Notes: generated by a model from the sequence alone, not told the origin. Shown: positions 3,001 through 55,766, counted from the first letter of the stretch. The stretch: 64,000 bases of DNA from an uncultured virus (IMG/VR IMGVR_UViG_3300020042_006808) (IMGVR_UViG_3300020042_006808), one strand, 5' to 3'. A program made the numbers and translations.

Positions 3001-3930
3001 AGTAGAACTATTAGACATTAAAAACAACTATTCTCCAAATTTAAGGAAGGCTCTTAATCTTTTCTCTCCTTCAAGAGGTTCATCGCCTCCTTCTTTTGCT
3101 GAAGAGTTAACCCATCAGGTATTTGACGATATACACCAACTGCTGTTCTGTAGTTTTGTTCCTCTTGCTTGGCATCAGAAGGGGATATTCTACCACTAGC
3201 TACTTTCTCTTTAAGACTAGTTATATATGCACTTTGAAGGGTTTCGTCATTAGCCATATTCTCAAACATCTCAAATGTTTTATCATCCATTTTGAGAAAT
3301 CCTGCCTTACTATATGCAGCACTAACAGCATTAGGAATTCCTAGTGTATAACCTCCAACTGCTTCTTGAGCTCCTGCATAGAACATTTCAGCTACAGCTT
3401 TTTCTATAGTTGCAGGAGTTTGAAAATACTTATCACCTTTTATATACTCATTATATATGGTCTTGAACCCTGTCTCTACACCTTGTTGTAAAAACCCTGT
3501 CTCTGCTTCAGCAAGACCTGCGGCAGTAAGGACCAATGCCCCTCTAGCAATTTTACTTTTTACTTCATTCTCTGCTAATTCTCTAAGTGATGTATAACCT
3601 ACTCCCTTTCCTGCCTTACCTAACATAGCCATAGTAAGGTTAGTTATTATACCCTTACTTTGCAATACGTTTCTAAGACCGTATGCTTCTAAAACAGATG
3701 ATGCTATTCCAATAGGAGCAACGATTGCGGCCTTTTCAACTTCAGATATGTTGGCAAATACAGGGTCATTCTCCATCTCTTGCATTAATCCATCTGAAAT
3801 CTGAGAATACATTTGAGCTGTTCTCTGAGCCCACCCTGCAGGGTTTGAACTACCAACCATAGCAGGCAATGATTTTGCTAATCCTAATATTGCCCCACCC
3901 CAAAATCCTTCTTGTTTTAAATTAGTCCAT
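1..3930. repeat. Divergent inverted repeat: 1-872 versus 3056-3930
   Basis: The translated segments align colinearly. 809-872 and the reverse complement of 3056-3119 differ at one of 64 nt; the remainder carries many substitutions. Confidence 0.95.
2..3055 (+). CDS. Internal fragment of a giant virion/ejection 'polyvalent' protein (second, divergent allele) with a GNAT acetyltransferase domain and an HExxH zincin-like metallopeptidase motif; open at the window start and broken at about 3055
   Basis: The frame is open from nt 2 (WQQLTKEGFWGGAILGLAQSLPAM), upstream of the ORF-track Met at 71. Nt 1-872 are homologous to the C-terminal part of ORF 3054..5396(-). GNAT motif VPKDQRKKGVGTKVM...LVEFYKSLGF at about 1320-1635; HEVAH at 2033-2047 followed by EEYLAE. 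The ORF tail after 3055 is antisense of the other allele. Confidence 0.75.
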
Positions 3931-5396
3931 TCAATGCTAGTATTCTCATCACCTCTTCTTATTCTAAGACCTTTTCTTATGTATGGCATGATATTAGCTT
4001 TTACAAGCTTTTTACCAAAGTCATCCATTTCATCCTCCCATGTATCCAATTGCTCAGGAGTCAATGTCTTTTTCCAATCTTGAATAGATTGGTTTTCAGA
4101 TGGAGGTGCAACACCTATTTTAGATGCTCTTTCAATTGTACCTTTTCTTAAATTTTCAGGGTTAATTAAAAATTCAGCAGACCCAAGTTCCATAGTAGTA
4201 TCTACAAATACATTTGTTGTACCTGCCGCCATACTACTAATACCCTCTAAAATAGAATTACCTATACCCCCAAGCCAACCACCTTGACGTGATTTTGTTT
4301 CAACATATCTACCAACAGACCTCTCTAAAGAAGATGCCTTGTTTGTAAGCTTCTGTTCTTCACTAAGTAGAGTTGGGAGTTCATTAACTAAAGATAATCT
4401 TGTTTTTTCTACTGCATCAACTCTTTTAATAAACTCAGGATTATTCCATTGGGATTCAGGAGTTGAATTAAGTGAGTCTACTTCTTTTTCATAAGCCTGT
4501 TGTCTTAAAAGAAAATCTTTCTGATTTTGATTTACAGCAGTAGCCTCTTTATTTATTTTAGAAACTTCATCATCAACTTCCTTTTGATTGCTGAATATCT
4601 TAACTTGTTGGTCCTTTAAAGTCTTATCAAGAACGAACAACCCTTTCATAGGCGTGTTGTCTTGAATAAACTTTTGAAGTTTAAATGTTTCTTCTGAAGA
4701 TTTACTATCTAAAAAATTGTTTAATGATATTTGTATTTTTTTCCCGTCAGGAGCAGTTACGTCCATCCAATCTCCTGTAGCACCCGCTTCCTCAAACTTA
4801 AATCCTAGTCCTCCAAAACGGTATTCCATTTCGGGGACAACAAATTCTTCATTCTTATCAATAAGGTCTTTATTAATTTGTGCTAACTGCTCATTAAGAT
4901 ATTTGTTATTCTCTACCTTTGGCTTTTCTACTAGTTTATCAAATTCATTTGATGCGCTAAGTTCAGCTTGAGCTTTTCTAATAGGTGCTTCCTTTAATTC
5001 CTTTAGAAACTCAGGACTTGTTGCAGGCGTAACAGGAATTTGAGACTTACCTTTCTGAAGGTTGGCTACTAACTTACCAAAGCGTAATGCCTCTGGGTCA
5101 GGAGCTGATACGGACGAAACCGAAGAACCATCTCCCGAAGGTGATTCCGTAATATCGTTTTTTTTTTCTGCCTGTTTTACTATAGGGTCCTGAGTAGCTT
5201 GGGTTTCTTCACCTAATCCCATTAATACTTTATAATCGTTTATAGTTTTTTTGTATCCATTTTCCAAAGCTAGATTATAAGAAACATCAAGAGCCCTTGT
5301 ATTGGATGAAAGCAATTGTTTGAATTCATCAATTGACTTATTGTATCCGTTTTGTACAGCTAAATCGTAAGACGCTAAAATGGCTTTTTCGTTCAT
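3054..5396 (-). CDS. N-terminal 780 aa of the giant internal virion/ejection protein, truncated at the inverted junction
   Basis: Last gene of the late operon, after two internal-virion-like genes. It ends KERKD-stop exactly where the homologous + strand copy continues KERKDLEQF. It has an N-terminal tandem motif (SYDLAVQNGYNKSIDEFK / SYNLALENGYKKTINDYK). Confidence 0.7.
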   Translation of the reverse strand: MNEKAILASYDLAVQNGYNKSIDEFKQLLSSNTRALDVSYNLALENGYKKTINDYKVLMGLGEETQATQDPIVKQAEKKNDITESPSGDGSSVSSVSAPDPEALRFGKLVANLQKGKSQIPVTPATSPEFLKELKEAPIRKAQAELSASNEFDKLVEKPKVENNKYLNEQLAQINKDLIDKNEEFVVPEMEYRFGGLGFKFEEAGATGDWMDVTAPDGKKIQISLNNFLDSKSSEETFKLQKFIQDNTPMKGLFVLDKTLKDQQVKIFSNQKEVDDEVSKINKEATAVNQNQKDFLLRQQAYEKEVDSLNSTPESQWNNPEFIKRVDAVEKTRLSLVNELPTLLSEEQKLTNKASSLERSVGRYVETKSRQGGWLGGIGNSILEGISSMAAGTTNVFVDTTMELGSAEFLINPENLRKGTIERASKIGVAPPSENQSIQDWKKTLTPEQLDTWEDEMDDFGKKLVKANIMPYIRKGLRIRRGDENTSIEWTNLKQEGFWGGAILGLAKSLPAMVGSSNPAGWAQRTAQMYSQISDGLMQEMENDPVFANISEVEKAAIVAPIGIASSVLEAYGLRNVLQSKGIITNLTMAMLGKAGKGVGYTSLRELAENEVKSKIARGALVLTAAGLAEAETGFLQQGVETGFKTIYNEYIKGDKYFQTPATIEKAVAEMFYAGAQEAVGGYTLGIPNAVSAAYSKAGFLKMDDKTFEMFENMANDETLQSAYITSLKEKVASGRISPSDAKQEEQNYRTAVGVYRQIPDGLTLQQKKEAMNLLKERKD

Positions 5397-5410: not shown

Positions 5411-6526
5411 TTAATCATTAAATTCGCTAAAACCTGTTCCAGTAGGAGGTGTCCTTGGAGCGTCCCTTCTTTCAGTCTGACCAAGAGGCTTAACTTCTAT
5501 TTTTCTATTAACCATACCCAACAACTGCTCAGTCAGGAATTTCTCAGCCGCCTTATCTAGTTCTTCTGAAAATCTATACTCAGCTCTGCCTGTATTAGGG
5601 TCTGTTACTTTAAGAATTAAATTAGGATTTTTAGCCGCAGCAGCAGGGTCTGTTGTAGTTGTATAGCCCAACGTATCTCTAAGTAAAGACGCCTTATGTA
5701 ATGGATTACCTAATACAGCTTTTACAGAGCTATCTACAGATGAATAAAAATCAAAAAATATTTCTTTACCATCAGCACTAATATCCTTTCTTAATCTAAG
5801 GTCTTCTATAGATGTAAGACTACCAATCATTTTCAATGTAGGCGGGTCTATGTTTTCTTGAATTTCTGTACCCATAGCTTCAGATATAGATTTTAAGGCA
5901 TCCATGTATTTGAACTTATCAATTCTTCCATAGACTTCACCCTGTATGTACTGCATTCCTCTTGTACTACCACTCTTTAGACCAATTACTTTTTGACCAT
6001 CAATGTCCTGCTCTTCTTTTAAGCCAACATTAACTCTGCCTGTAGGTGAATCAATAAAGAATCCTGATTGTCTAAAGTTACCATACCCTTGAATTTCTTC
6101 TAAATTTTCTATTTCTAAAAGTGAAGACTTATCAGTTTTTGCCCTCTCCATTAGTTCACCATATTGGTCTTGAAATCCCTTCATGGAACTAAAAGCTTGT
6201 CTTGTTCCGTCAACTAGATTTTGACGTGCAATCATATAATCCTTAGGGTCTAATAAACCTCTTTTCAAAAGATTCTCTTGCATCAACATATACTTAGTTG
6301 CTTGGTCAGCAAATCTTAAAGCTTCTTCTCTAGCCCCTACGTGCTCCCCTTGAGGAGCATTTGATAATTCCTCAGCATATCTACGTGTTGCCTCATCAAT
6401 AGCTGCCTTCTTTTCTTCTCTTACAGCAACTTCCTGACGGAGCATATCCGTCATGTTCTTTCCTATCTCGGCCCAATTGACCTGAGACTCAGCACTACGT
6501 TCAGCGTATTTATAAAATGTTGCCAT
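5411..6526 (-). CDS. Putative internal virion (ejection) protein
   Basis: 371-aa helical-looking ORF between the tail genes and the giant gene; synteny typical of podoviral core proteins. Confidence 0.5.
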   Translation of the reverse strand: MATFYKYAERSAESQVNWAEIGKNMTDMLRQEVAVREEKKAAIDEATRRYAEELSNAPQGEHVGAREEALRFADQATKYMLMQENLLKRGLLDPKDYMIARQNLVDGTRQAFSSMKGFQDQYGELMERAKTDKSSLLEIENLEEIQGYGNFRQSGFFIDSPTGRVNVGLKEEQDIDGQKVIGLKSGSTRGMQYIQGEVYGRIDKFKYMDALKSISEAMGTEIQENIDPPTLKMIGSLTSIEDLRLRKDISADGKEIFFDFYSSVDSSVKAVLGNPLHKASLLRDTLGYTTTTDPAAAAKNPNLILKVTDPNTGRAEYRFSEELDKAAEKFLTEQLLGMVNRKIEVKPLGQTERRDAPRTPPTGTGFSEFND

Positions 6527-16317: not shown

Positions 16318-17058
16318 TTAAGCTAAAATTGCTTCTAACATCTTCAATGAATCAATCCCTTCATCGCTTTGCAGGAATCCTCCTGCTATTTCGTAAGGGT
16401 CTTCCCCGTAAGGAATAGACATCATCTTCTTTTTGTTAGTTGAGGTGTTAAACCAAATCTCCTTGTCACCGTTTCTCAAGACCAAGAACTTGTTTTCAAA
16501 AAACATTCTAATCTTTGCTTGGTATTTTAACTCAGGGTCATTCAATATATTTAAAAACTCTTTAGGGTCAGTCTTAGCAAACACTAAGATGTCACGTTTC
16601 AATTCAGCAGTAGACACCATTGATGGGTCCTTGCCAAACATCACTCTAGTAAGAGTTTCAATTTGGTCCATAGTTAATTGACGAGCTTCTATTAACGCTT
16701 CTACTTCTAGGTTTAAGTCCTCAACTTGTTCAGCTGCTTCTTTTTCTTTATCTACCTCAGCAAATACAACACCATTAAATGGGTGATAGTGAAGAAATTG
16801 TTGAAGTACAGGATTTTGTTTTGGTACTCTCAAAAACCCATCTTCAAAAACAATGGATTCAATAATTGCATTTCCATCTTGCTCGTCTTCAAAAGGAGAC
16901 TTTTGATTGGTTGCATATCTTAATGCACGGTTCTGATTGTTCTTCTCATCAAACCACATCAGAGGAAATCTAGGATGATTTCTTGAAGCCAATGTATAAG
17001 ACAGTGGACTTCCTATTTTTAATTTGTAGACTTTGTCTACAGGGATATTCTTTGCCAT
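16318..17058 (-). CDS. Conserved phage protein of the capsid block (function unknown)
   Basis: 246-aa ORF downstream of the major capsid gene. Confidence 0.6.
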   Translation of the reverse strand: MAKNIPVDKVYKLKIGSPLSYTLASRNHPRFPLMWFDEKNNQNRALRYATNQKSPFEDEQDGNAIIESIVFEDGFLRVPKQNPVLQQFLHYHPFNGVVFAEVDKEKEAAEQVEDLNLEVEALIEARQLTMDQIETLTRVMFGKDPSMVSTAELKRDILVFAKTDPKEFLNILNDPELKYQAKIRMFFENKFLVLRNGDKEIWFNTSTNKKKMMSIPYGEDPYEIAGGFLQSDEGIDSLKMLEAILA

Positions 17059-32200: not shown

Positions 32201-35200
32201 CCTAATGCCCAATCTGAGGTTATGTACTTAAAGCCAACAGAATCTACAAATGTATTGGTAGTAAAATAGTTTGCAGCATCACCGCTTTCCCCAAACAATG
32301 CTCCTGTTGTTCCAAATTGAAATGCCTTATAAGCACTATTCCACGCACTCGGTGTAACTCCTAAGCCAAGGTTGCCTGACGAGTCAAGACGCATCTTTTC
32401 AGTTATGTAACCACTTCCTGTTGGTTTTGTATAAAATGCTAAAGAACCTTTTACACTATTTGGACTCCCACTATGCACCTCATTTATTGAGCCAATAGCA
32501 GCAAGATTAATAAAAGCACTTGCATCTTGAAAACCTATTAATGATAAGTTTCCATTAGTAGTATTTGTATTTTGAATATTAATAATACCCGGATTGTAGT
32601 TTGAACCTACACTTGTTGCAGCTAAACTATCAGCAACAGAAAACTTAACAAATAAAGTTGTTTGACCAATACCAATTTGTGAACCGTTATCATAAGCAAC
32701 ACTATTACCAATTGTGCTTGCCGCTGTAAACTTAGGCAAGTAGTTAGTTGTCCCTGTTCCCGTGACAGGGTTAGTAATTACAGACTGATACTGAGGGATA
32801 TTTAAAGTATTACTACTAAAGGTAGCTGCACCTGAAGTGCCCGTGGTTGTTAAAGTTATAGTCCCTTGCTTATTATTAAACGTAGTCCAATCTGTAGAAG
32901 ATAAATATCCATTAACAGAAGTAGTAGCTACAGGAATAGAAATAGCAGGAGTTGTACCACCGCTTGAAACAATCGGACTTGTACCTGTAACACTTGTCAC
33001 ATAAGTCCCTGATGCTTGATACTGAGGGATATTTAATGTAGCACCTACTAATGTAGCCGCTCCACTTGTGCCTGTAGTAGTTAGGGTGATTGCATCTTGC
33101 TTACCATTAAACGTACTCCAATCAGTACTACTCAAAGCACCTCTAGCACTAGCTGATGCTGTGGGCACGTTTAAGGTTATTGCAGGAGTAGTAGTGCTAG
33201 TAGCTACACTAGCTGATAAATTAGTCCCAGTTGCTCCTAAAGTAAATGAAACACTTGTAACTGTTCCAACAAATGAATCAGTATAGTTGGGGATATTTAA
33301 AGTATTGCCAACTAAAGTAGATGCACCTGAAGTACCTGTCGTAGTAAGGGTAATTGCCCCCTGCTTTGAATTGAACGTAGTCCAATCAGTACTAGATAAC
33401 AAGCCATTTTGAGCCCCAGTAGCAGTGGCAATAGCAAGAGTGATAGTGCCACTCGTAGTAATAGGTGTTGAACCGATAGTTACTCCACTAGTTACTGATG
33501 ATAATCCTACAGATGTAACCGTGCCTACAAATTGGTCAGTATAAGTAGGAATATTAAAAGCCCCTGTTGTATTATCGTATGTTGAAGCACCTGAACTGCC
33601 AGTAGTAGTTAAACTTATTGCGGTTCTTGCTCTTGTGTTTGTGAAATATAAATTAGTCGCCCCTTCAGGAATGTTATCAGTAGTTAAACTAACAGCACCC
33701 GTAAATCCATTAACAGAACTTACAGAGTCAGTATTGTCTACCTTCTCCCATGTCGTTCCTGCAAAGATAGCCCAATCACCTACTTGCCAGTCTGTAATAC
33801 CATCAAGGTTTGTTGTTCCTGCAACACTAACAATATAGTAATGCCCATTTGTGCCCACACTACTTACCAATGCAGGCGTGTTAGTATTTGCATTCCATGT
33901 ACCTTGGAATATAGTTCCTCCAATAAGGCCATTGATTTGATTTTGTACCTTACCAAATCCTGTTAATATGCTATCTGCCGCAACCACCGTTCCACCTGTA
34001 ACATTTAGTCCTGTCAATACCTTGCTTATTACAGCGGCATTGTCAAGAGTTACAGCTGCAGCTCCGGGCCCTAATGCAGTAGCCTCACCTGTTAGTGATG
34101 TAATATAATTACCCGCAACCTGTTTATTATCAAATGTTGTCCAATCAGCAGCACTCAAAGCGCCTCTATTTACAGCACTAGCTGTAGGTACATTTAAAGT
34201 TATTACAGGTGTTGTGGTGCTATTTGCAACCGTAGATGATAAGTCAGTGCCAATCGTTCCTAAAGTCAATGCAGCAACGCTTGTAACCGTACCAACAAAT
34301 TGGTCGGTATAAGTAGGAATATTTAATGTGTTGCCAATTAATGTAGAAGCACCACTTGAGCCTGTAGTTGTAAGCGTTAACGCTCCTTGTTTGTTATTAA
34401 ATGTGTTCCAATCTATTGAAGAAAGGTATCCATCAGCAGCAGCTCCTGATTGAGAAATGCTAAATGCTCCTGTCGTATTGTTATATGACAATGGAGCCGT
34501 AGCACTAAGTGAACCTAGTACTATGTATGCGCTTGAATCAACACTGCCATCAGCTTTTAAAAACTGACCTGATGTTCCACCATTTTTAATTAAAGAAGTA
34601 GCAGTAAGACTATATACGCCTAAGTTAACAGACCCTGTTGCTCCTGTGTAAGGTACAAATCCTGTTAGTCCCGGAAACGTTTGTAGCGCTCCTGTTCCGT
34701 CAACATATTGAAGTGCATTCCCTGACCCCGTAATAGCTATCGTGCCATTTGAAGTCAATGGAGAGTTAGAAACGCTAAAAGCAGCAGGCATACTTACCCC
34801 AACCGAGGTTAGCCCTGTATCAATGTCAGACCAGCTGGCAGTAATCGTTCCGCCGTCCTGCTGATTAAGCGTTAATGTCTTTGTTGCTGTGCCCGTAACT
34901 GCAGCACTTACAATTGAATCATTGTATGCCGTGTTCCAATTAGCTGAGTTGTCAGTGATATATGAAATAGTTCCGCCAACAGACTTAACTAATCCCGTTC
35001 CTCCTAATAATGCTTGCTTACTATTAAATGTCAACCAATCAACACTTGATAAGTATCCGTCTAAAGTACTGCTTGACTGCTGTATGGTAATGTTAGGAGT
35101 AGCACCGCCTGTTGAAAATAATGGGCTACTTGCCGTAACAGATGAAACACCTGTTGCAATTGTCCAAGACCTATCAGCTGATAAATTAAAAGTAATGCCA

Positions 35201-42024: not shown

Positions 42025-42272
42025 AATAGTTTTACAAATAATGGAGTCTTTTCACCAACGTATGCCCCTAGAATATTGTAATCATAAAACTCAGAAGCCT
42101 CATCATAACTCATCCCGTCTTCCATTAGTATTCTTATGATTTTGTCAACGTCATAAACAAGTCTACCACTAGCATCGTCAAGGCCAATTATAGCATCATC
42201 ATAGCCGTCAGCTATGAGAAATTCTTCATCAGGCCACAACTCAATCATTTGCTCAATCTTAGTTCTGCTCAT
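42021..42272 (-). CDS. Conserved small acidic phage protein (likely start MSRTKIEQ)
   Basis: ADGYDDAIIG...VYDVDKIIRILM...EASEFYDYNILGAYVGEKTP. Confidence 0.65.
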   Translation of the reverse strand: MSRTKIEQMIELWPDEEFLIADGYDDAIIGLDDASGRLVYDVDKIIRILMEDGMSYDEASEFYDYNILGAYVGEKTPLFVKLL

Positions 42273-43875
42273 AGCTTCGTGCCATTGTAATGATGGCGTT
42301 AGTGGATAGAATTGTGACGGCAACACTGACTGCGTTCTGCAATGCAGACCTAGTTACCTTAAATGGGTCAATAACACCCATCTCAATCAGGTCGCCCATC
42401 TGACCTGTCTTTAAATTGTAGCCATGCCCTACAGGAGTACCGTCCTTATACACGTCACTAGGCTTTAACCCTGCATTTGCAAGGATTTGTTGGAATGGAG
42501 CCATCAATGCGTTGCGTACAATAGCCATCGCTGCAGTATACTCCTTAGAAATTGACTCAGGGTCAACTAAATCAGCACTCTCATCAAGCAATGCCTTGCC
42601 TGCACCGGGCAATATACCCTCCTCAAGGGCACTTCTTACCGCACATACAGCGTCATCGACCCTATCATACAGCTCCTTCTGCTCCAAGTCAGTCTGACCA
42701 CCCACAAATATGACACCAATGCCCCCTGTAAGGGACGCAATACGCTCCAACATGAAGTCCTTGTCTGCTTTTCGGGTCGCCTGCTCATGTGATTGCCACA
42801 ACTGAGCCACTCTCGCATCAATTGACCCTTGGTCAACTTTTGCTGAGCTACGAATAATTATGGTTTTGTCCTTTGACACGATGACTTTTGACGCATGGCC
42901 CAAGTCACCATAGTTAATATGACTCAAATCATCACCCGTCTTCTCACTAAAGTAGGTTGCACCTACACTAATCGCAATATCCTGCATCAGCTCGTGCTGC
43001 TTGTAGCCAAAATTAGGCGGTGCCACAGCACAAACCTTTAAATTACCCTTCATGCTGTTAGCAGCAAGCGTGTTTACCACGTTCACATTGCACGGTGAGA
43101 TAATCAATAGCTTCTTACCCTCTGAAATAATTGGCTTCAGCACGTTCTCAATCTGCAAAATGTTTGCAATCTCCATGTCAGCCACTAATATCATCACATC
43201 ATCGAAGATGCACTCGTCCTTCTTCAAGTCATTAATGAACAGATTGCTCAAATAGCCCCTGTCAATCTTTAATCCCTTCGTAGTCTGAGAATATGTCTCG
43301 CTAGTTTGGCTTCGCTCAACAGTAACTACACCACTCTTACCAACCTCCTTGTAAAGCTCAGAGATAATCTTCCCAATCTCTCGGTCATTATTAGCACTGA
43401 TAGCAGCCACATCCAATAACATTGACGTGCTGACCTTCTTAGCTTTCTTACGAAGCTTCTCCACCACCTTATTGCTGATGTCCACCATGTGTCGCAACAC
43501 CTCTGTTCTGTTCATGTTATCAGTGATGTGCTCAAGCCCTCCAAGTACCAACCCTTCAGTCAATACAATTGCAGTAGTAGTACCGTCACCAGCCGTTGTA
43601 GCAGTCTTGTCTGCCGCTTCCTTCATCATCCTAACCGCAAGGTTCTCAACTGGGTCAATCAAGTCAATTGACTTGGCCACAGTTACACCGTCCTTGGTTA
43701 CCGTAATTCCATGTGTGTGATTTGCACTCTCGATTAATACCGTATTGCCCGAAGGGCCAAGAGTTGACTTTACAGCCTTCGACATCTTAATGATGCCATT
43801 GATTAGTTTGGTTCTACCCTCAGTGCCAAACTTTAAGTCCTTGGGTGAATAACCCAGTCCTGATGTCTCTACCAT
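42259..43875 (-). CDS. groEL: Phage-encoded chaperonin GroEL
   Basis: STLGPSG, VTKDGVTVAKSI, AGDGTTTA, ISANND, DDAVCAVRSALEEGILPGAG, GVIDPFKVTRSALQNAVSVA; no GGM tail. Confidence 0.95.
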   Translation of the reverse strand: MVETSGLGYSPKDLKFGTEGRTKLINGIIKMSKAVKSTLGPSGNTVLIESANHTHGITVTKDGVTVAKSIDLIDPVENLAVRMMKEAADKTATTAGDGTTTAIVLTEGLVLGGLEHITDNMNRTEVLRHMVDISNKVVEKLRKKAKKVSTSMLLDVAAISANNDREIGKIISELYKEVGKSGVVTVERSQTSETYSQTTKGLKIDRGYLSNLFINDLKKDECIFDDVMILVADMEIANILQIENVLKPIISEGKKLLIISPCNVNVVNTLAANSMKGNLKVCAVAPPNFGYKQHELMQDIAISVGATYFSEKTGDDLSHINYGDLGHASKVIVSKDKTIIIRSSAKVDQGSIDARVAQLWQSHEQATRKADKDFMLERIASLTGGIGVIFVGGQTDLEQKELYDRVDDAVCAVRSALEEGILPGAGKALLDESADLVDPESISKEYTAAMAIVRNALMAPFQQILANAGLKPSDVYKDGTPVGHGYNLKTGQMGDLIEMGVIDPFKVTRSALQNAVSVAVTILSTNAIITMARSYEQN

Positions 43876-43968: not shown

Positions 43969-44222
43969 ATGTCGATTTTATGCGGATAATTACAGAGTAA
44001 TGTCGATTAATAACCTGAACATCAGACTCTTGTCGGAAATGTCAATTTATTTTCCCTACTTCTTCTATATATATATCCCTCCTTTATATTTTTTTTCCCC
44101 TTATATTTTCTCTTAAAAATCGACATTTTCGACATTAAATAAATAAAGTATTAATAATCAATAAGTTAAGAAAAAAAAATCGACATGAAAATCGACATAA
44201 AACCATGTCAATAATGTCGGTT
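43969..44222. repeat. Origin-like element A: AAAATCGACAT repeats, AT-rich core, IHF-type site
   Basis: AAAATCGACAT at 44116, 44176 and 44188, inverted at 43969; (TA)n core near 44066; AATCAATAAGTTA at 44156-44168 matches WATCAANNNNTTR. Confidence 0.6.
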
Positions 44223-44346
44223 TTAAAAGAATCAATACCTTTTGGTCAGATTGTTCATAGGTAGCAGCATCCAATGAGACATTGGATATTGGAAAAAACT
44301 AATTTCGTTTCAAGTATTCCGTGGCCTGCCATGGAATAATGGCAAC

Positions 44347-44377
44347 AAAAAAAGGGACCTAATCTAGACCCCCCTTT
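44347..44377 (-). terminator. Probable terminator after 44402..44635
   Basis: AAAGGG...CCCTTT stem followed by a T tract on the minus strand. Confidence 0.45.
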
Positions 44378-44401
44378 CAAATCAAACACCCGAAACACTA
44401 T

Positions 44402-44635
44402 CTAATATTCTCCCATCATGTCGCTTCTCATGTCTCCCATGGAAACACCTTCAGCAATGATGTCAATTTTTTCCATACGCTTCATGGCCTTCTTTGCTAT
44501 AGCAGCCTGAGCAATGCCAGACATACTATCAGGTCTGTTGTTAATCAACCTACCACCTTGGACATCTAGCCCATTGCCCATCATCATCTTACTCGCATAT
44601 ACGGAGTTACTCAATTTTAATCCTTTCATAATCAT
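44402..44635 (-). CDS. Met-rich small protein
   Basis: 77 aa with its own promoter box (44657-44664) and terminator. Confidence 0.6.
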   Translation of the reverse strand: MIMKGLKLSNSVYASKMMMGNGLDVQGGRLINNRPDSMSGIAQAAIAKKAMKRMEKIDIIAEGVSMGDMRSDMMGEY

Positions 44636-44929
44636 TTTTTTTTAGTTGCAACTTCCCAAAGATAATAACTTTTAGATTAATAAAACTTCCACAAATGGGA
44701 ACTTATAGGTTGTCACAAAAATATATAAACCCGTGACAAATTGGAACGCTTTGCTCGGATTAATTCCGAATTACATTATATGCCAAAACATATACCGCAC
44801 AATAGATTTGGCAAATTATACGTGAGCGCATATAATTGACCGAGAGTCAAATTTTACACTAGATAATTAGAGTGTGGGGGCTATATAGCAGTTTGACGCA
44901 GCGAGCCGTCAGCAGAAAGTCATTTTATT

Positions 44930-45200
44930 TCAAGGGGGTGGGGGTCTGATTTGGTTGCCCCTTGTCCGATTTTTTGGCTTTTCCATGGGCAGGGTAGCCC
45001 ATGGGGTAGCCCCGTGGCTATGGGTAGCCCCATGCCCCATGCGTTCGCCCCACGCTTCGCCCGTGCCGTGCCCTTGTCACCAGTACAATTGCCTTGCCTC
45101 CACATGAATGCAAGTAATGAATGCACAAAGGGGACACTAGAGCCGTCAAGGTTCAACTGGAGCAACTGGAAAACAGGGGACAGGGGACACTAGAGCCCTC
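44930..45200. repeat. GC-rich non-coding island with short direct repeats at the strand switch
   Basis: GGGTAGCCC three times (44992, 45004, 45022); GGGGACACTAGAGCC twice (45130, 45183). Confidence 0.8.
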
Positions 45201-45310
45201 TTTATCCCCTCTCTTTCCTTGTCACGCTCAAACTTAGTACACGATTAGTTCGTGTGCTAACTACTTGACCCGAAAATATTTGCATATATTTTTAAAAAAA
45301 AATATCAAAA

Positions 45311-45344
45311 CACTTGCATAGTATTTAAAGATGAACTACTATTG
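45311..45344 (+). promoter_or_regulatory. Early promoter 1
   Basis: CACTTGCATA...TACTATTG; the same upstream 10-mer and spacing recur at 48531-48564. Confidence 0.6.
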
Positions 45345-45385
45345 TACATCATTTAATCTAAACATCTACCAAACACCTACTAACC

Positions 45386-45634
45386 ATGCTAAACTACACT
45401 AAACTAATGTCTCTGAATCCTACGATTTACAAGACATTTACTAATTCACTTGACCAATTGATTCTATTGGTAGAACACCCATTGAGAGGGGACGAAAGTC
45501 CAGTAATAGTTGTATGCGAAGAATTAGCATTGGCTGATTACTCTGACTTCTATTAGTTAGGAGAGATTGACGAAGTTGGAGGAGATTATGAAATGGGATT
45601 TATTGCAAATGAGTTATTTCACGGACTAAAATAA
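45386..45634 (+). pseudogene. First early gene, 82 codons with an in-frame TAG at codon 57
   Basis: MLNYTKLMSLNPTIYK...DYSDFY*LGEIDEVGGDYEMGFIANELFHGLK; TAG at 45554-45556. Confidence 0.6.
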
Positions 45635-45647
45635 AAACACAAACACC

Positions 45648-45866
45648 ATGGAAAATTTTCTAGCAACCACATTAATTATTGAGAAGCATTTTAAAGCCAC
45701 CAAACCTGCTTGGGAGTGCATCTACATCGCAATGGAGTTAGAGCCGTACTACAAAAATTTGCTTCTACTTGAGGCATTGGCTCCGACACAAGTGGCCGAT
45801 ACAATCCTGCACGACTACAACGGCCTACGAAGTGATGATGACTACTTCGTTCCAAGACTAGGTTAA
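45648..45866 (+). CDS. Early hypothetical protein
   Basis: 72 aa with A-rich leader; its stop codon lies in hammerhead 1 stem I. Confidence 0.65.
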   Translation: MENFLATTLIIEKHFKATKPAWECIYIAMELEPYYKNLLLLEALAPTQVADTILHDYNGLRSDDDYFVPRLG

Positions 45867-45910
45867 CTGAAGAGGATTTAATATCCGAAACCGCTTAGGC
45901 GGTCTTAACC
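45861..45910 (+). ncRNA. Hammerhead ribozyme, type I (HHR1)
   Basis: GGTTAA CTGAAGA GGAT-ttaat-ATCC GAAA CCGC-ttag-GCGG TC TTAACC: complete CUGANGA/GAAA/UH core with all three stems Watson-Crick. Confidence 0.92.
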
Positions 45911-45924
45911 AAAACCAAATAACT

Positions 45925-46131
45925 ATGCTAAGTTTATCAGACAAATTAAAACACTCTCTAGCCTCTGATATGGCTAAAATTGATGCGGTAGATTTACCCC
46001 ACGAAACTTATGAGCAACATTATTCGACCCTTATGAAGTGGAGGGATTTTGATTTGCTTAACTACTGGGTGCATAATCAAGGAATTTTTGATGCAGGTGA
46101 AATTTTAATAAACAAAATAAAACACTTATAA
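45925..46131 (+). CDS. Early hypothetical protein
   Basis: 68-aa ORF with A-rich leader. Confidence 0.6.
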   Translation: MLSLSDKLKHSLASDMAKIDAVDLPHETYEQHYSTLMKWRDFDLLNYWVHNQGIFDAGEILINKIKHL

Positions 46132-46156
46132 ATTAACCCCAAAACACTCAAAAATT

Positions 46157-46690
46157 ATGAAAGTAAAATTCAGTTCTAACTCCGACCTAGCCCGTGCTTG
46201 GGCTAACCAAAGCCAACCCGAGGGCAAAGGCAACTCCATGTTCTTTGTCAATGAGAACGTATACTCCTACGGCTACCACTATGTGGCTGGTACTATTCTA
46301 GAAGCCAAGGATGGCCAAAAGGTAGCCATTGTCAATGGCACGTCTTATAGCGTGTCTACTGCCAAACACGTGGGTGAGGTCATGTCGGCTTCAATTAAGC
46401 TATACCACACCTTTAAAATCCCATTTGGCAGTTCCTTTGGATTCAGTTCCTTCAGCGTAGACAAGTTGCCATTCATCTTGAAAGTGATGACCAAGGAGGT
46501 GGAGAAGTTGTCAGAGAAGCAACTACGGGCACGTACGTCAACGCATAACTTCTACATGGCCTTGCACAAGGTGGACGACATTAAAGAGTTAAGCAGACTC
46601 TTTGACCTTCCCGTTCCCAATACATCAAGTTTTAAATACTTTGGCGAGGCTTCTAAAAATGCATACAGAAAGGAGCAAAACCATGGATAA
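46157..46690 (+). CDS. Early hypothetical protein
   Basis: 177 aa; WANQSQ...VYSYGYHY...YSVSTAKH. Confidence 0.7.
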   Translation: MKVKFSSNSDLARAWANQSQPEGKGNSMFFVNENVYSYGYHYVAGTILEAKDGQKVAIVNGTSYSVSTAKHVGEVMSASIKLYHTFKIPFGSSFGFSSFSVDKLPFILKVMTKEVEKLSEKQLRARTSTHNFYMALHKVDDIKELSRLFDLPVPNTSSFKYFGEASKNAYRKEQNHG

Positions 46691-46796
46691 GAAAATGTGG
46701 ATTGATGGCCTTGGCTGGGTGATTGAGGTTACCATAAACAGGCTGAATGAATACGGCATAAACGAGCCGTACGTGGAATACAGGCAGGTTAACTGA
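46683..46796 (+). CDS. 37-aa early peptide (MDKKMWIDGLGW...)
   Basis: Overlaps the upstream stop; its TGA is part of the CUGA core of hammerhead 2. Confidence 0.5.
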   Translation: MDKKMWIDGLGWVIEVTINRLNEYGINEPYVEYRQVN

Positions 46797-46836
46797 TGAC
46801 GGCTAGTTGCTAGAAAGCCCGTGAGGGCTCTTAACC
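46787..46836 (+). ncRNA. Hammerhead ribozyme, type I (HHR2)
   Basis: GGTTAA CTGATGA cGGC-tagtt-GCTa GAAA GCCC-gtga-GGGC TC TTAACC; same stem I as HHR1, different but fully paired stem III, weak stem II. Confidence 0.85.
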
Positions 46837-46851
46837 AAAAACAATTTAATC

Positions 46852-47031
46852 ATGGAATACAACTTATTTCTATTTATTAAACTACACGAAGTGTATATCA
46901 AATCTAAATTAGAATACGACCTACTATTTGGAGAAGTATTGAGCCTATACGAAGATTGGAAAGTATGGGATTCCGATTTTGGGAGATTCTATAACACCTA
47001 CGAATCAATTGAGGAATTTTTAAAAGGTTAA
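46852..47031 (+). CDS. 59-aa early protein
   Basis: MEYNLFLFIKLHEVYIKSKLEYDLLFGEVLSLYEDWKVWDSDFGRFYNTYESIEEFLKG. Confidence 0.6.
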   Translation: MEYNLFLFIKLHEVYIKSKLEYDLLFGEVLSLYEDWKVWDSDFGRFYNTYESIEEFLKG

Positions 47032-47054
47032 CTAAACTAAAACACACACAAACT

Positions 47055-47267
47055 ATGGGAAGATTCATAACCGCCCGATTCAAAAGCAATTGTGCTGAGA
47101 CTGGCAAAACAATCAAACAAGGCGAGTCCATCTACTACGATGGCAAGGCCTACTGCATGGATTCTAAGGCCTACAGAGACCGCAAGGATGCCAACCAAAC
47201 CTTTGCTCACATCAAGGCAAATGAGGACGCTTACTATGACAATTTTTGTACCCAAAACAACATCTAA
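47055..47267 (+). CDS. Early small Cys-containing protein
   Basis: ARFKSNCAETGKTIKQGESIYYDGKAYC. Confidence 0.65.
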   Translation: MGRFITARFKSNCAETGKTIKQGESIYYDGKAYCMDSKAYRDRKDANQTFAHIKANEDAYYDNFCTQNNI

Positions 47268-47271
47268 AGCC

Positions 47272-48523
47272 ATGAAAATTCTAATTAAAATCATCTACAC
47301 GCTCCTAGCCTTTGCACCCATTTTCATTTTGGGATATATGTTAGGCGAAATTTAGAACTAAACATCCTTCGCCTTGGGCGTGGTATTCGATTACGAAAGG
47401 GTGCAAACAATTTAATCAACTTAAAAATCAAATCAAATCATGAAAAAAGATGAATTAATTTCGACCCTTATCGCCTTTGGAATCATGGCGGTAGTCATTT
47501 ACATTGGCCATCTGTATGGCCTAGAACTTGAGAAAATTATATTTTAATCAAAAAAACTATGAAAACACTACTACTTGCCCTATGTATATGGGGCTGCAAT
47601 GACAAAATTAAAATTCAGAACGCAGGTGATGTGGAAGGTCGCAAGACTTACCATGTAAAAGTCGGCAAGATAACCTATGAGTATATGTATGCTGAAGAGA
47701 TTGCTAATGGCCTGAAGACAGGCGATTGGTTGTATAATGAGGACTTAAAACTAAACAAATAAAATATGACAAAGTATATTGCATTAGTTAACTGGCAATC
47801 AAAAAAACTAGGCCAACTACAGAGCAACATGGTAATCGAAGCAAAGAATGAAGAGGATGCATTAGATATTCTAATAGGTAAAATAAAGAAACATAAAAGA
47901 TATTTAAAACATTTAGAAAATTGGCTAAGATGGATGGATAAAAATCAAGGTAGAGTTAAGGTAATAGACACAAAAATAATATAACTATGTTTTACCAAAT
48001 CAATTTCGAAAAAAGGCGTGTCATTGTACAAGATGTAATTGACCGCCTAACTAGGCTAGATGCCAACCAAGGTGCAAAGTATTTGCAAGGTCTTGAGAAC
48101 CTGCATAGCAAGTTCAATGTCAATTCAGATACGGATGCCTTGGGCATTCGTTATTATTCAACCAATAAACACCTAACAAAATGACAGACCTATTTGAGTC
48201 AATCGAAACACTACCTGAGCGAGTTCAAAAAATCCTCTGGGAGTATGCTTGGGAGGAAAAGAGTTACGAGGCGTGTGAGAGAATGTTAATCGACCTAGAG
48301 GCCGAGGGGTACACCTTTGAGTTTGGTCTTGATGCCGAGCCGTTCAACCTAACTAAAATAGATTGAGGCCATGGAAAAGAAAACTTATTACAGCGTGTGG
48401 ATAAGCAAGGAATTGATTTGGGAGGGCATAGCGTCCTCCTCATTCGAAGCCATTGACAGGGCGTACTCAAAGTACGCTCATCCAGTAAATCGAAATGAAT
48501 TGTACGCAAAAGTAAAAAAATAA
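47272..48523 (+). CDS. Run of tiny early ORFs (47272-47355 TM, 47440-47547 TM, 47559-47762, 47766-47984, 47987-48184, 48181-48366, 48371-48523)
   Basis: Head-to-tail ORFs with A-rich leaders; two are single hydrophobic helices. Confidence 0.55.
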
Positions 48524-48530
48524 GGCATTG

Positions 48531-48564
48531 CACTTGCATAAGTCTATTTCTCGTATTAAGTTAG
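48531..48564 (+). promoter_or_regulatory. Early promoter 2
   Basis: CACTTGCATA...TAAGTTAG, with the same spacing as 45311-45344. Confidence 0.6.
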
Positions 48565-48615
48565 CATATCATTAGTTCAACAACAAATTGGGAGTACTCT
48601 CTAGGGGGTACTCCC

Positions 48616-48666
48616 TCAGTACATGGGTGTGTGCCCATGCCGATGATTCCTAAAGGATGAAACTGA
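48616..48666 (+). ncRNA. Hammerhead ribozyme, type III, U4C core variant (HHR3)
   Basis: TCAG TA CATGGGT-gtgt-GCCCATG CCGATGA tTCC-taaa-GGAt GAAA CTGA. Confidence 0.78.
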
Positions 48667-48688
48667 AACCCAAAAAACAATTTACAAC

Positions 48689-49742
48689 ATGAAAAAAGAA
48701 ATCATTTTCGACCACGATGCCAAGTCCCTAGCGGGGGCACTTGGTGTTGAACCTCATGCATTTGCGAGCCAACTAGCAGCCGTGATGGCTATCTACGATG
48801 CCGTTAATGAGACTAAAGTCAGCAAACTAAGTGCTTTAGTACACTCATGCATCGACTACAAGATTATTTTATTAATGGCGACAACCCAACTTGTTGGTGT
48901 TGTTGAGCAGTTCAACAACTCAAATGACATTGATGAGTTGTTTGGCACTCTCTCACAAAACTAGCCATGAGTCGGTTCATGTCAATTGCATGGGAGTTGG
49001 CCAAATTCTTTTTTGTGTCAGTACCCTTGGCCATTGTGGTTTACATTGTGTTGCACATTGGCTTTGTATTTTACATCATTTATAAACAAATAAAATCCTT
49101 ATGAAAGCATTCGAAATTAACACCACGGCATGGGATGAGGAGAACTTTATCCTATTCACAAACTTGACCGATAGTCAAATAAAAAAAATAATCGAGCCAA
49201 TCGTATTTTACGAGCGGGAGGGCGGTGACGAGTACACCAATGACTCACTAGTTGACGCACTCATAGATGCCTATCCAGATAATCAAATTTATTCTTACAC
49301 AACACCTAAACGAATTGAAATATGAAAATCACAATTGAGGTAGATGTGCCTGAAGACATGGACTTGGAGCATACCTTAGAGTGTGTCACAGACGCTCTCT
49401 TTTTTTCTGACTGCGTAACATCAAAGGAAGAGAATTTTGTAATTGAATTAATTCAAGAACTTCAAAAACAATTAAACAAAAGTTAATCAAATTAAAACTA
49501 TGGAAAATTTCAAAGATTGGCAAGACTCTGGTCGTTGCTACACCAGAAAACACTTTCTATCCCTTTTCCCGACAGCTGAATTGCTAGGAGCTTGTGATGA
49601 GGTGATGCTATACGATGGTGATTACTACATTCAAGGCTTGTTTGGTGGCTCGTACTACTTTAGCAACACGAATCGGAGTAAGCACATTGAGGAGGTGGAG
49701 AAAAATTTATTTTTGGAAAAAGTCATGCAAAAGATAGACTAG
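48689..49742 (+). CDS. Run of small early ORFs (48689-48964, 48967-49092 TM, 49101-49325, 49322-49485, 49500-49742)
   Basis: Head-to-tail ORFs with A-rich leaders. Confidence 0.55.
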
Positions 49743-49786
49743 TATTAAACATTTTATTATCTTTACAATTCATTAAATAAAATAAA

Positions 49787-50089
49787 ATGAAACAAGACGT
49801 TTTTAATCAATACGTGGACAGGGTCATTGACCTCTTTGGGATAACCAAGGAGGCTTTCTTTTCCAAAACAAAGAAGCGAGAGGTAGTCGATGCTAGGCAA
49901 TTGATTTACTACCTGTGTGCCAAGAGGCCGATGCAAATAACTTACATCGAAAGGTACATGAATGATGCAGGGTACGAAATCAAGCACTCGTCAATCATCC
50001 ATGGCATATCTGCTGTAGAGAAAAGAATAGCAGAAGACAAGGACTATGTGTCCGTAATTAAAGAAGTAGAAAGAGCAGTTTTTATCTAG
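49787..50089 (+). CDS. DnaA C-terminal (domain IV)-like HTH protein
   Basis: FGITKEAFFSKTKKREVVDARQLIYYLC...HSSIIHGISAVE matches the DnaA domain IV pattern. Confidence 0.8.
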   Translation: MKQDVFNQYVDRVIDLFGITKEAFFSKTKKREVVDARQLIYYLCAKRPMQITYIERYMNDAGYEIKHSSIIHGISAVEKRIAEDKDYVSVIKEVERAVFI

Positions 50090-53357: not shown

Positions 53358-55766
53358 ATGACACAAGACATAACCATCTTTAAAAGTATCAAAGATACTG
53401 ACACTCCGTTCTTCAGGGACGTGAGGGTAATCCTTAACAGAATCAAGGAAGGCTCAGAAACAACTAGGGATTTGGTCAAGCGAATTCGCTCGGAGAAAAA
53501 TAAACCTGAGCGGCAAGAACTCAAGAAGTTATTACCAGCAATATGCTTCAGTGGTACATTCAACAAAAGAACAGACGCATCCCTGATACAGCACTCAGGT
53601 TTGATATGCCTAGACTTTGATGGATACAGCAAACAGAAGGAGCTACTACAGGACAAGGAGAACCTGACCAAGAACAAGTACGTGTTCTCGGTGTTTATCT
53701 CTCCCTCTGGAAATGGTCTAAAGGTATTGGTAAAGATTCCTGCCGATGCAGAGAACCATACCAACTACTTCAACAGCCTAGAGAAATACTTTAACAGCCC
53801 GTACTTCGACAAGACTAGCAAGAACATCTCTCGTGTATGCTACGAGTCTTACGACCCGCTCCTGCACATCAACGAGAACAGCAGTATATGGGACTTGATT
53901 GAGGAGCCTGAGTACACAGAGGTAAGCAAGACAAGAGACCAGCCTACTATCCCAATCACGGACGAGAATAAGATTGTGGACATACTTATTAAGTGGTGGA
54001 CAAAGAAGTACCCTATGAGTGAGGGACAGCGCAATCAGAACTGCTACGTTCTATCCATGGCCTTCAATGACTTTGGCATCAACAAGGGACTGGCATCCTA
54101 TGTATTGAATCAGTACGCCTCTGAGGACTTCTCAACCAGTGAGATTTCTACAACGATTGACTCAGCATACAAGCACACCGCAAACTTTGGTACCAAGTAC
54201 TATGAGGACGAGGAGCGGATAAATAACATCAGAGCCAAACTCAGACGTGGTGTATCAAAAAAAGAGATTCGCATCCAACTGCAAGACTCCCACTTGGACA
54301 GCGATATAATCGAATCTGTACTCAATAAGGTAGAAGAAGAGAACTCAAAGCAAACCTTTTGGGACAGAAACGATAAGGGAGTAGTAAAGATAATTCACAT
54401 TCAGTTCAAGCAGTTCCTTGAGGACAATGGGTTCTATAAGTTCTGCCCTGAGGGAGGAAAGAACTATGTGTTTGTAAAGGTCACCAACAACTTGATTGAC
54501 CACACATCTGACAAAGAGATTAAGGACTTCGTATTGAGTCACCTGCTGGAGCTGGATGATATTGGCGTATACAATTACTTTGCAGACCAAACTAGATTCT
54601 TTAAGGAGGAGTTCCTCTCTTTACTTTCTACGATTGATATTTACTTCATTGGAGATTCTAAAGATGAATCATACCTATACTATAAGAACTGTGCTATAAG
54701 AATTACAAAGGATGGAGTTTCACTATTGGACTACATTGACCTTGGCGGTTACGTTTGGAAAGACCACGTGATTGACAGGACCTTTGTAAAGTGTAGCGTG
54801 TCTGAGTCGTTTGATTTCAAAAAGTTTGTCAGCAACATAAATGGTGGTGACGAAGGAAGGATTCAATCAATGGAGAGTACGATAGGCTTCTTGCTTCATG
54901 GATATAAGAACCTTGGCTTCTGTCCTGCGGTGATATTAAACGATGAGGTAATTAGCGACAACCCTGAGGGAGGCACAGGAAAGGGATTGATTATGAACGC
55001 CCTGAGCAAGATGAAAAAGCTAGTGGTGATAGATGGTAAGTCATTTGCGTTTGAGCGTAGCTTCGCCTATCAGCTGGTGTCAGCAGACACTCAGATACTT
55101 TGCTTCGATGATGTGAGAAAGCACTTTGACTTTGAGAGGCTATTCAGTGTCATTACTGAGGGATTGACCTTAGAGAAGAAGAACAAGGATGCCATTAAGA
55201 TTCCGTTCGCTAAGTCTCCAAAGATTGCCCTGACAACTAACTATGCCATCAAGGGGGCCGGCAACTCATTCGCAAGACGTAAGTGGGAGCTAGAGTTACA
55301 CCAATACTACAGCAAGGAGTTTACGCCACAGGATGAGTTCGGTAGACTTATGTTTGGGGACTGGAACGATGACGACTGGTGTGAGTTTGACAACTACATG
55401 ATTGGATGTTTAAAGTCTTACCTGAGAACAGGATTAGTGAAAAGCAAATTCGTTAACTTGAAAATACGTCAGCTGTCAGCAGAGTCATCCCATGAGTTTA
55501 TCGAGTGGTGTGGATTGGTTGACCGTGCAGAGCGTAACGTGATGCTACAGGTTGACACTAGGCTGTACAAGAACGAGCTGTACTCTAACTTCGTGGAGGA
55601 GTACCCTGACTATGGACCGAGAGGAAGGATGAGTATCAGCAGGACTAAGTTCTACAAGTGGCTAATTGCTTATGCAATTTACAAGGAAGGGACGATGCCT
55701 GAGGAAGACAGAGACCAACAGGGGAGATGGATAATTATTAAAAGCAAAAAAGAAGATGAAGACTAA
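53358..55766 (+). CDS. Primase-helicase (BT4734/VirE-N-like primase, PriCT-like domain, P-loop helicase)
   Basis: LPAICFSGTF, SGLICLDFD, FISPSGNGLK, SRVCYESYDP; GQRN; GGTGKGL Walker A, CFDD Walker B, TTNY motif C. Confidence 0.85.
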   Translation: MTQDITIFKSIKDTDTPFFRDVRVILNRIKEGSETTRDLVKRIRSEKNKPERQELKKLLPAICFSGTFNKRTDASLIQHSGLICLDFDGYSKQKELLQDKENLTKNKYVFSVFISPSGNGLKVLVKIPADAENHTNYFNSLEKYFNSPYFDKTSKNISRVCYESYDPLLHINENSSIWDLIEEPEYTEVSKTRDQPTIPITDENKIVDILIKWWTKKYPMSEGQRNQNCYVLSMAFNDFGINKGLASYVLNQYASEDFSTSEISTTIDSAYKHTANFGTKYYEDEERINNIRAKLRRGVSKKEIRIQLQDSHLDSDIIESVLNKVEEENSKQTFWDRNDKGVVKIIHIQFKQFLEDNGFYKFCPEGGKNYVFVKVTNNLIDHTSDKEIKDFVLSHLLELDDIGVYNYFADQTRFFKEEFLSLLSTIDIYFIGDSKDESYLYYKNCAIRITKDGVSLLDYIDLGGYVWKDHVIDRTFVKCSVSESFDFKKFVSNINGGDEGRIQSMESTIGFLLHGYKNLGFCPAVILNDEVISDNPEGGTGKGLIMNALSKMKKLVVIDGKSFAFERSFAYQLVSADTQILCFDDVRKHFDFERLFSVITEGLTLEKKNKDAIKIPFAKSPKIALTTNYAIKGAGNSFARRKWELELHQYYSKEFTPQDEFGRLMFGDWNDDDWCEFDNYMIGCLKSYLRTGLVKSKFVNLKIRQLSAESSHEFIEWCGLVDRAERNVMLQVDTRLYKNELYSNFVEEYPDYGPRGRMSISRTKFYKWLIAYAIYKEGTMPEEDRDQQGRWIIIKSKKEDED

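Follow-up and report, generated by a model that had tools for sequence, protein, structure and literature searches.

Predicted self-cleaving hammerhead ribozymes of two phage subfamilies at small-gene junctions of an uncultured freshwater phage

Clusters of hammerhead ribozymes in phage DNA, their cleavage in vitro and the hypothesis that they process RNA are already in print (PMC3088659; PMC6155905). In their account of tandem hammerheads, Perreault et al. (2011, PLoS Comput Biol, PMC3088659) report cleavage of such prophage RNAs in vitro and propose a role in RNA processing; the arrays named there as tested are those of Clostridium scindens, Azorhizobium caulinodans and Agrobacterium tumefaciens. 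A review, in the part concerned with bacteria and phages, still calls the function of these hammerheads an open question (PMC6155905). Here we describe three predicted hammerhead ribozymes, HHR1, HHR2 and HHR3, in a stretch of 64,000 nucleotides (nt) from an uncultured virus (IMG/VR IMGVR_UViG_3300020042_006808), the whole of which we call the window and which comes from an uncultured, lytic-looking freshwater phage. As in the arrays described by Perreault et al., in which hammerheads of the same polarity flank small genes of unknown function within a few kilobases (kb) of phage DNA, the window holds three plus-strand copies in 2.8 kb among small open reading frames (ORFs), and the same role is proposed, namely the cutting of long phage transcripts into shorter mRNAs. 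In contrast to those arrays, which were assayed, the window combines type I copies with an invariant stem I and a type III copy partnered by a hairpin, in a lytic-looking freshwater phage, and is known from sequence alone. Another system treated in the same article (PMC3088659), the HHphage of haloviruses HF1 and HF2, lies 13 nt ahead of the start codon of an early helicase, and the mapped 5' end of the transcript is near the cut; it shares with the window a phage hammerhead at a short fixed distance before an early-gene start, but it is a core-insertion variant of a different subfamily, present as a single copy in an archaeal virus. As a system the window is of a known kind; the family to which it leads is large, very regular and missed by the curated thresholds of Rfam.

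A descriptor scan covering both strands of the window returned HHR1, HHR2 and HHR3 only (Table 1), and the preliminary description of this DNA, which had placed two type I and one type III hammerhead on the coding strand at gene junctions, was right in both type and position. In 200 dinucleotide shuffles of the window, which served as chance control, the strict descriptor gave 0.055 matches per window, rising to 0.09 with one stem II mismatch allowed and to 0.235 with U4 also left free; of the 47 relaxed matches a single one reached the stem lengths of HHR2, and those of HHR1 and HHR3 were reached by none. Covariance models were built from other contigs. Model R1, made of 16 type I copies with none from the window, found HHR1 (E ~6e-17) and HHR2 (E 1e-12), the next match scoring 15.4 bits, and model R2, made of nine external type III copies including the ortholog of HHR3 in the close relative L135, found HHR3 (E 1e-19). 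The 15.4-bit match of R1 at 32370–32412 was rejected, as it kept only stem I and CUGANGA, and so was a match of R2 at 16539–16591 on the minus strand (15.4 bits), which lies within a gene and is without the GA of the core.

The hallmarks of the hammerhead are present to different degrees. The core C3 U4 G5 A6 N7 G8 A9 is complete in HHR1 and HHR2, so that the earlier claim of three core matches holds exactly for these two, whereas HHR3 deviates at U4. G12 A13 A14, the A15.1-U16.1 pair and an H17 other than G occur in all three copies, with H17 being C45904 in HHR1, C46830 in HHR2 and A48621 in HHR3, which places the predicted cuts at C45904/U45905 (the 5'-OH end would be 45905), C46830/U46831 and A48621/C48622. 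At 10.1-11.1, the base of stem II, where most hammerheads have a G-C pair, HHR1 has G-C, HHR2 C.A and HHR3 U.U. Three Rfam families, RF00163 (type I), RF00008 (type III) and RF03152 (RAGATH-1 hammerhead), have the same core and three-helix junction. At gathering scores Rfam reported none of them in the whole window, and an E-value scan of 4.5 kb gave noise only. In narrow scans HHR1 matched only RF03152 (14.3 bits against a gathering score of 56.3), aligning with its ribozyme part and lacking the 25 further 5' positions of that family, and HHR3 aligned end to end with RF00008 (28.8 against 48.5 bits); HHR2 matched no hammerhead family, and RF00163 gave no match in these scans at E up to 10. 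The Rfam check proposed in the preliminary description thus gave sub-threshold matches on two copies. Both the relaxed descriptor rate of 0.235 and the scores below Rfam gathering would fit a chance likeness to the hammerhead consensus in AT-rich intergenic DNA, but we regard this as practically negligible, because the models from external contigs score all three elements at E 1e-12 or lower; orthologs with compensating changes are present in the contigs L135, L262 and L264, and the shuffles gave no match with the stem lengths of HHR1 or HHR3. We take the three elements to be genuine hammerhead-family ribozymes of two phage subfamilies, for which self-cleavage is predicted.

HHR1 consists of a 6-bp stem I (GGUUAA/UUAACC), the core CUGAAGA, stem II GGAU/AUCC with loop UUAAU followed by GAAA, and stem III ACCGC/GCGGU with loop UUAG, and it carries the conserved flanks A at 45860 and AA at 45911–45912. 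Its lowest-energy predicted fold is the hammerhead fold. Judged by these features HHR1 is the sole fully canonical copy among the three, and it is very probably active as a self-cleaving ribozyme. HHR2 has the same stem I, the exact core CUGAUGA and a fully paired stem III (AGCCC/GGGCU, loop GUGA). The two copies had been said to differ in stems II and III while keeping them paired; stem III indeed shows compensating changes, whereas stem II of HHR2 is paired at only three of four positions, starting with the mismatch C46800.A46812 at 10.1/11.1 and continuing with G.U, G-C and C-G. Loop II of HHR2, UAGUU, is atypical in being without the family A at position 3; this A and G10.1-C11.1 are the only subfamily features that HHR2 lacks. 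Contigs of 949 and 637 nt from DNA runs cross HHR2 with no differences from the window.

HHR3 sits in a 165-nt gap before a 91-amino-acid (aa) ORF. Its stem III is UCAGU/ACUGA and its stem I a hairpin at 48622–48639; the core reads CCGAUGA, with C48641 in place of U4, and the copy was detected only with U4 left free. Stem II starts with U.U (U48647.U48658), and the predicted fold is the hammerhead. DNA-run contigs of 335 nt across HHR3 differ from the window only at 48769; the contigs across HHR2 and HHR3 come from two DNA runs, one of which may be the source sample. According to the passages on core variants in Perreault et al. (2011, PMC3088659), U4C is a natural variant that 'considerably' lowers activity in vitro and yet allows viroid infectivity, and U10.1-U11.1 occurs naturally and is the mismatch best tolerated. 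L264 has the C4 core again, in a copy whose stems II and III are different and fully paired. C4 is thus carried by two of the four known copies having a stem I hairpin of the HHR3 type, the copy of the window and, of the three contigs found, that of L264. HHR2 and HHR3 are probably weak or partly decayed cutters, because their changes are known or expected to slow cleavage.

In order to place the type I copies in a wider family, we used an IMG/VR pattern made of stem I and core, in which GGUUAA/UUAACC was fixed and the flanks were left unfixed. It gave at least 134 loci, and 80 loci among the matches listed correspond to 72 contigs by manual count. Among 115 distinct aligned type I copies 99.6% of the cells are paired and 321 cells are changed on both sides; none of 500 shuffles reached this level of pairing and slid controls paired in 22–44% of cells. 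Both the type I and the type III alignments were fitted to models, which favours pairing, and none of the slid controls reached 49%. Stems II and III are free to covary across the subfamily, unlike stem I. The unfixed flanks of stem I are near-invariant, with A before it in 99% and AA after it in 97% and 84% of copies, stem II has 4 bp, and the 5-nt loop II follows U-N-A-N-U (U 100%, A 93%, U 88%). Stem I and the flanking A are identical in HHR1, HHR2 and about 140 copies on about 70 phage contigs. The stem I shared by HHR1 and HHR2 had been taken as a sign of selection in this phage; it is instead invariant across the whole subfamily. Some neighbouring copies have another stem I (GAUUAA in seven, GGUCUA in two). 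The hallmarks of the subfamily are thus an invariant stem I, a variable stem III and a cut after UC, each of which is found in HHR1, and we infer that stem I, the flanking A residues and loop II form a tertiary-contact module of the ribozyme.

The type I copies occur in clusters on a single strand: 30 of the 73 loci with matches have two to seven copies, with a median spacing of 478 nt. Larger arrays are seen in L080, with seven type I copies in 3.1 kb (376–3449, minus strand), and on the contig behind L042, L043 and L044, with seven or more. In 185,579 species genomes the pattern gave five stretches, all in metagenome-assembled genomes (MAGs), namely of Pedobacter, Niabella, a beta-proteobacterium, Aliivibrio and a Streptomycetaceae bin; no host can be named from five stretches that may well be mis-binned, and the subfamily appears to be essentially a phage one. 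Rfam, run on ten family loci, reported no type I copy and a single type III one. Searches of full-text literature gave no account of type I hammerheads that form a subfamily by this stem I, although subscription journals and Dataset S1 of Perreault et al. (2011) may contain it, and its description with an invariant stem I and position rules may be new. Models R1 and R2 could be used to annotate the family in phage metagenomes.

The position rules rest on a count over 151 unique copies of type I, of which 149 are external and two are those of the window. In 114 copies an upstream ORF of 40 codons or more has a stop codon that begins within −10 to +1 of C3; in seven the stop lies deeper inside the ribozyme, and 30 have no such upstream ORF. 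In the window TAA 45864–45866 falls inside stem I of HHR1 and TGA 46794–46796 in the CUGA of HHR2, as the preliminary description had noted. Three reading-frame registers are in use among the copies counted. In 109 of the 151 copies the predicted cut precedes by 19–24 nt the ATG of a following ORF with 30 codons or more, and the leaders are 59% A and mostly without a Shine-Dalgarno sequence. The leaders of HHR1 and HHR2 are 20 and 21 nt long, their common start TTAACCAAAA occurs in the window only at 45905 and 46831, and UUAACCAAAA is confined to the two cut sites; the 'standardised leader' proposed from these two copies has thus turned out to be family-wide.

The type III subfamily shows a different layout. 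Thirteen copies in nine loci have 99.4% of their cells paired, and 11 of 14 pairs are changed on both sides. For the context counts one low-scoring match was swapped for the copy of the window (n = 13): a strong hairpin of −15 to −28 kcal/mol ends 1–2 nt before the ribozyme in ten copies, the window included, and the next ATG follows 22–29 nt after the ribozyme in nine. The hairpin of the window starts 67 nt after the upstream stop. A search with the type III pattern CCATGCNGATGA...GAAAC returned mostly chance or coding matches, and only six folded as type III, all with U4.

Table 1. Hammerhead elements and associated features of the window
Feature	Position	Strand	Basis
HHR1, type I hammerhead	45861–45910	+	Descriptor scan, stems 6/4/5; model R1, 69.5 bits
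HHR2, type I hammerhead	46787–46836	+	Descriptor scan, stems 6/3/5; model R1, 54.5 bits
HHR3, type III hammerhead	48616–48666	+	Descriptor, stems 7/3/5; model R2, 66.2 bits
Hairpin, 11 bp, −18.3 kcal/mol	48590–48615	+	Predicted fold; ends one base before HHR3
Upstream ORF, 72 aa	45648–45866	+	ORF list; homolog in L135 at 3698–3916
Fragment between the HHR1 and HHR2 cut sites, 926 nt	45905–46830	+	Predicted cut sites and ORF list
ORF of 91 aa behind the HHR3 leader	48689–48964	+	ATG 23 nt past the end of the model R2 match (48617–48665)

We consider it more likely than not that the hammerheads cleave a polycistronic early message and thereby uncouple neighbouring genes. Each ribozyme would fold and cut itself as the polycistronic RNA is made. 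A type I copy would stay with the upstream piece, whose 3' end would then be folded and bear a 2',3'-cyclic phosphate, and the upstream stop, retained about 40 nt before the cut, would allow normal termination of the ribosome. The short, AU-rich stem I of 6 bp would then dissociate and release the downstream piece, which would begin with a 5'-OH and have about 20 single-stranded, A-rich nt ahead of the AUG; in an uncut type I copy stem I would remain paired 13–18 nt from the AUG. A type III copy would stay with the downstream piece, and the separate hairpin upstream of it would provide the folded 3' end of the upstream piece, which after HHR3 cleavage would be the hairpin at 48590–48615. With either layout the products would be the same in kind, the upstream RNA being capped and the leader, of about 20–29 nt, being free, and as outcome the stability and translation of neighbouring genes would be uncoupled. 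The regularities of the family turn this model into concrete predictions, as the stop lies inside stem I, the cut 19–24 nt before the start, and a hairpin where type III would leave the upstream RNA without a folded end: cleavage is predicted to free the leader for ribosome binding and to cap the upstream message. A protein-dependent counterpart is the early transcript of T7, in which RNase III, a host protein, cuts double-stranded stems and leaves 5'-phosphate and 3'-OH ends. Common to both would be an early polycistron punctuated at gene junctions and folded 3' ends; unlike the T7 transcript, the RNA of the window would cut itself and leave 5'-OH and cyclic phosphate ends.

Several observations weigh against this self-cleavage model. 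The ribozymes lie at only three of the 18 junctions of the small-ORF array, so there is no general one-gene-one-message system in this phage. Of the 115 distinct copies of the family HHR2, with its C.A, is the only one unpaired at 10.1/11.1, and the fold of lowest energy predicted for it is not the hammerhead but a rival in which a CUAG/CUAG pairing occupies G12. HHR3 has two deviations together, U4C and U.U, and Rfam at gathering scores reports none of the three. The 19–24 nt spacing could be explained as room for the ribosome beside any folded RNA in a compact genome, with cleavage being immaterial, and the gene gain and loss seen at these junctions in related strains would fit passive junction elements equally. 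Contigs from the RNA libraries X23 and X24 cover only scraps of the region (45635–45827, 45940–46162, 47272–47363, 47559–47618, 47663–47828 and 48134–48372), with no cleavage product among them; they span no cut site and contigs cannot show RNA ends, which leaves them neutral on cleavage and expression.

The relative L135, with 86% identity in the 177-aa protein encoded between HHR1 and HHR2, bears on a rather unlikely alternative, in which the ribozymes are passengers, that is conserved junction sequences that travel with swappable gene cassettes or serve as recombination joints between them, and whose cleavage is incidental or, in this phage, already decaying. L135 carries a canonical type I copy directly after the gene of this protein, at the HHR2 junction (4512–4563, stem II GUCC/GGAC), and a canonical type III ortholog of HHR3 with the core CUGAUGA and the same stem I hairpin (5909–5961). 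It is without HHR1 and the following 68-aa ORF, without the 59-aa ORF after HHR2 and without 47268–47981. Hammerheads at early gene junctions had been expected to be conserved in relatives, which is true of the HHR2 and HHR3 junctions, whereas the HHR1 cassette is absent. That these gains and losses fall at the ribozyme junctions, and that two of the three copies of the window are weakened while the orthologs of the relative are canonical, would fit passengers. So would the end of the 59-aa ORF 46852–47031, which closes with GGTTAAC (47026–47032); this is stem I in its 5' half together with C3, and no ribozyme follows. Nevertheless, the compensating changes in stems II and III and the near-invariant core throughout the family argue for selection on the fold and not on a DNA joint alone. 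HHR2 differs from its ortholog at five of eight stem II positions and still keeps three of four pairs, and in L264 the C4 variant is found again in a copy whose stems differ and are nonetheless paired.

The GGTTAAC at 47026–47032 may be a scar left where a cassette was gained or lost beside a ribozyme; L135, in which the 59-aa ORF is missing, has the ribozyme joined directly to the leader of the next gene. Occurrences of TTAACC and GGTTAAC, the target half of the ribozyme, at other junctions were unremarkable (22 and 16 per strand). Further joints that differ from the window were seen in the freshwater DNA runs X1 and X7, namely 45861>47370 with 18 other letters between, 46889>47271, 47325>47461, 47552>47983 and 47761>47983; with sides of 18–39 letters and likeness set to 90, they are weak hints of cassette variation at the strain level. 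At one loose contig end from the same runs HHR1 has another stem III, whose strands are still complementary.

The position of the upstream stop could also be read in another way, in which a terminating ribosome keeps the ribozyme unfolded, so that cutting and release of the leader depend on upstream translation. A ribosome covers about a dozen bases beyond the stop codon, and with the stop at −10 to +1 of C3 in 114 of 151 copies, and in the window within stem I (HHR1) and CUGA (HHR2), it would cover part of the ribozyme. We nevertheless hold such translation-gated cleavage to be unlikely: the same layout follows from simple genome compaction, the use of three reading-frame registers means that no single geometry is kept, and type III copies lie far from the upstream stop, which in the window precedes the hairpin by 67 nt.

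The fragment between the first two cut sites has the length of 926 nt and the three ORFs given in the preliminary description. It would start with the 20-nt A-rich leader, continue with the ORFs 45925–46131 (68 aa), 46157–46690 (177 aa) and 46683–46796 (37 aa), and end with the body of HHR2. Viroids, satellite RNAs and retrozymes are hammerhead-bounded units that fold as long rods holding their ends and replicate as RNA. The fragment resembles such circular RNAs in being bounded by two hammerheads of the same polarity and in having ends that refit one ribozyme, and it differs from them as a coding piece of DNA-phage mRNA with an end helix of only 6 bp. On this basis one can imagine a cut-and-rejoin scheme, in which the 5'-OH end made by HHR1 docks through the identical stem I on the HHR2 body and either the ribozyme or an RtcB-type ligase closes a circle or joins non-adjacent pieces. 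The 5'-OH and 2',3'-cyclic phosphate ends are suited to ligation, and the identity of stem I and the flanking A in HHR1, HHR2 and the roughly 140 copies would let any end fit any body. Even so, we find it very unlikely, and the 926-nt circle suggested earlier is unsupported: only six AU-rich base pairs would bridge 926 nt, the bases beside stem I are A opposite A with no further pairing of the ends, no RtcB or RNA ligase family was found in the 32 ORFs scanned, and HHR2, the would-be joining body, is the defective copy. Moreover, no circular or spliced products were detected from such arrays according to the corresponding part of Perreault et al. (2011, PMC3088659).

A bolder extension, to which we assign a small chance, treats the invariant clamp A-GGUUAA/UUAACC-AA, which stays identical while the other two helices vary, as a universal docking interface and more than a helix. 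Any 5'-OH product might then re-anneal to any body and be re-ligated, giving circles or rejoined, shuffled messages, or the clamp might be recognised by the ribosome, an RNA ligase or some other factor of the host; copies that are weakened, with C.A in HHR2 and a U4C that recurs in an unrelated contig, would be tuned and not broken.

The junctions belong to an array of 19 tightly packed small ORFs on the plus strand (45648–50089), located upstream of recombination and replication genes, in which only four gaps exceed 50 nt: those of HHR1, HHR2, HHR3 and one other folded element. Downstream on the same strand follow genes for a Sak-type annealing protein, an exonuclease, a ParB-like protein, a primase/helicase and an SNF2 helicase, while portal, large terminase, tail fibre, holin, amidase and a GroEL-like chaperonin are encoded on the minus strand; judged from gene content alone, the label 'early operon' for the array is plausible. 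The 177-aa ORF matches PHROG 7247 ('unknown function') and no Pfam family, and its 18 homologs are unnamed or called 'hypothetical protein' only. A blastn search of 44000–50000 against GenBank phages gave one 54-nt match and no relatives.

The GroEL-type chaperonin is full-length (42259–43875, minus strand; Pfam Cpn60_TCP1, E 2.6e-57; PHROG 5725) and adjoins the divergent region where the array begins. The primase/helicase (53358–55766, plus strand) has a BT4734-like N-terminal domain, which together with start regions without a Shine-Dalgarno sequence and the two pattern matches in Bacteroidota MAGs hints at a host among the Bacteroidota. Of the promoter box TAnnTTTG of Bacteroidota type, the DNA upstream of the array has a single copy (44803) and the gap ahead of HHR3 none, against about 1.6 expected by chance over that span; the site at 44803 was dropped as promoter evidence, its count being within chance expectation.

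The fourth gap, of 84 nt before ORF 47440–47547, contains an element resembling a three-way junction (47356–47415, plus strand), with an outer stem of 7 bp and two hairpins, one formed by CGCC/GGCG and one whose loop is UUCGAU. A similar element lies in L135 at 3917–3985, where the window has HHR1 and the 68-aa ORF, and the outer stem differs between the two copies and is paired in both; the fold z-scores of these two copies are weak (−0.6 and −2.1). Rfam and ARAGORN gave no match for the element, and pattern scans of IMG/VR returned the L135 contig only. It may represent an alternative junction RNA.

Finally, the 10-mer AAACAATTTA is present three times on the plus strand of the window (46839–46848, 47405–47414 and 48675–48684), with 0.70 expected and four of 100 shuffles reaching three. 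Its copies stand in the leaders just past HHR2, the three-way-junction-like element and HHR3. As ACAATTT occurs in two of 147 type I family leaders only, the motif looks specific to the lineage of this phage.

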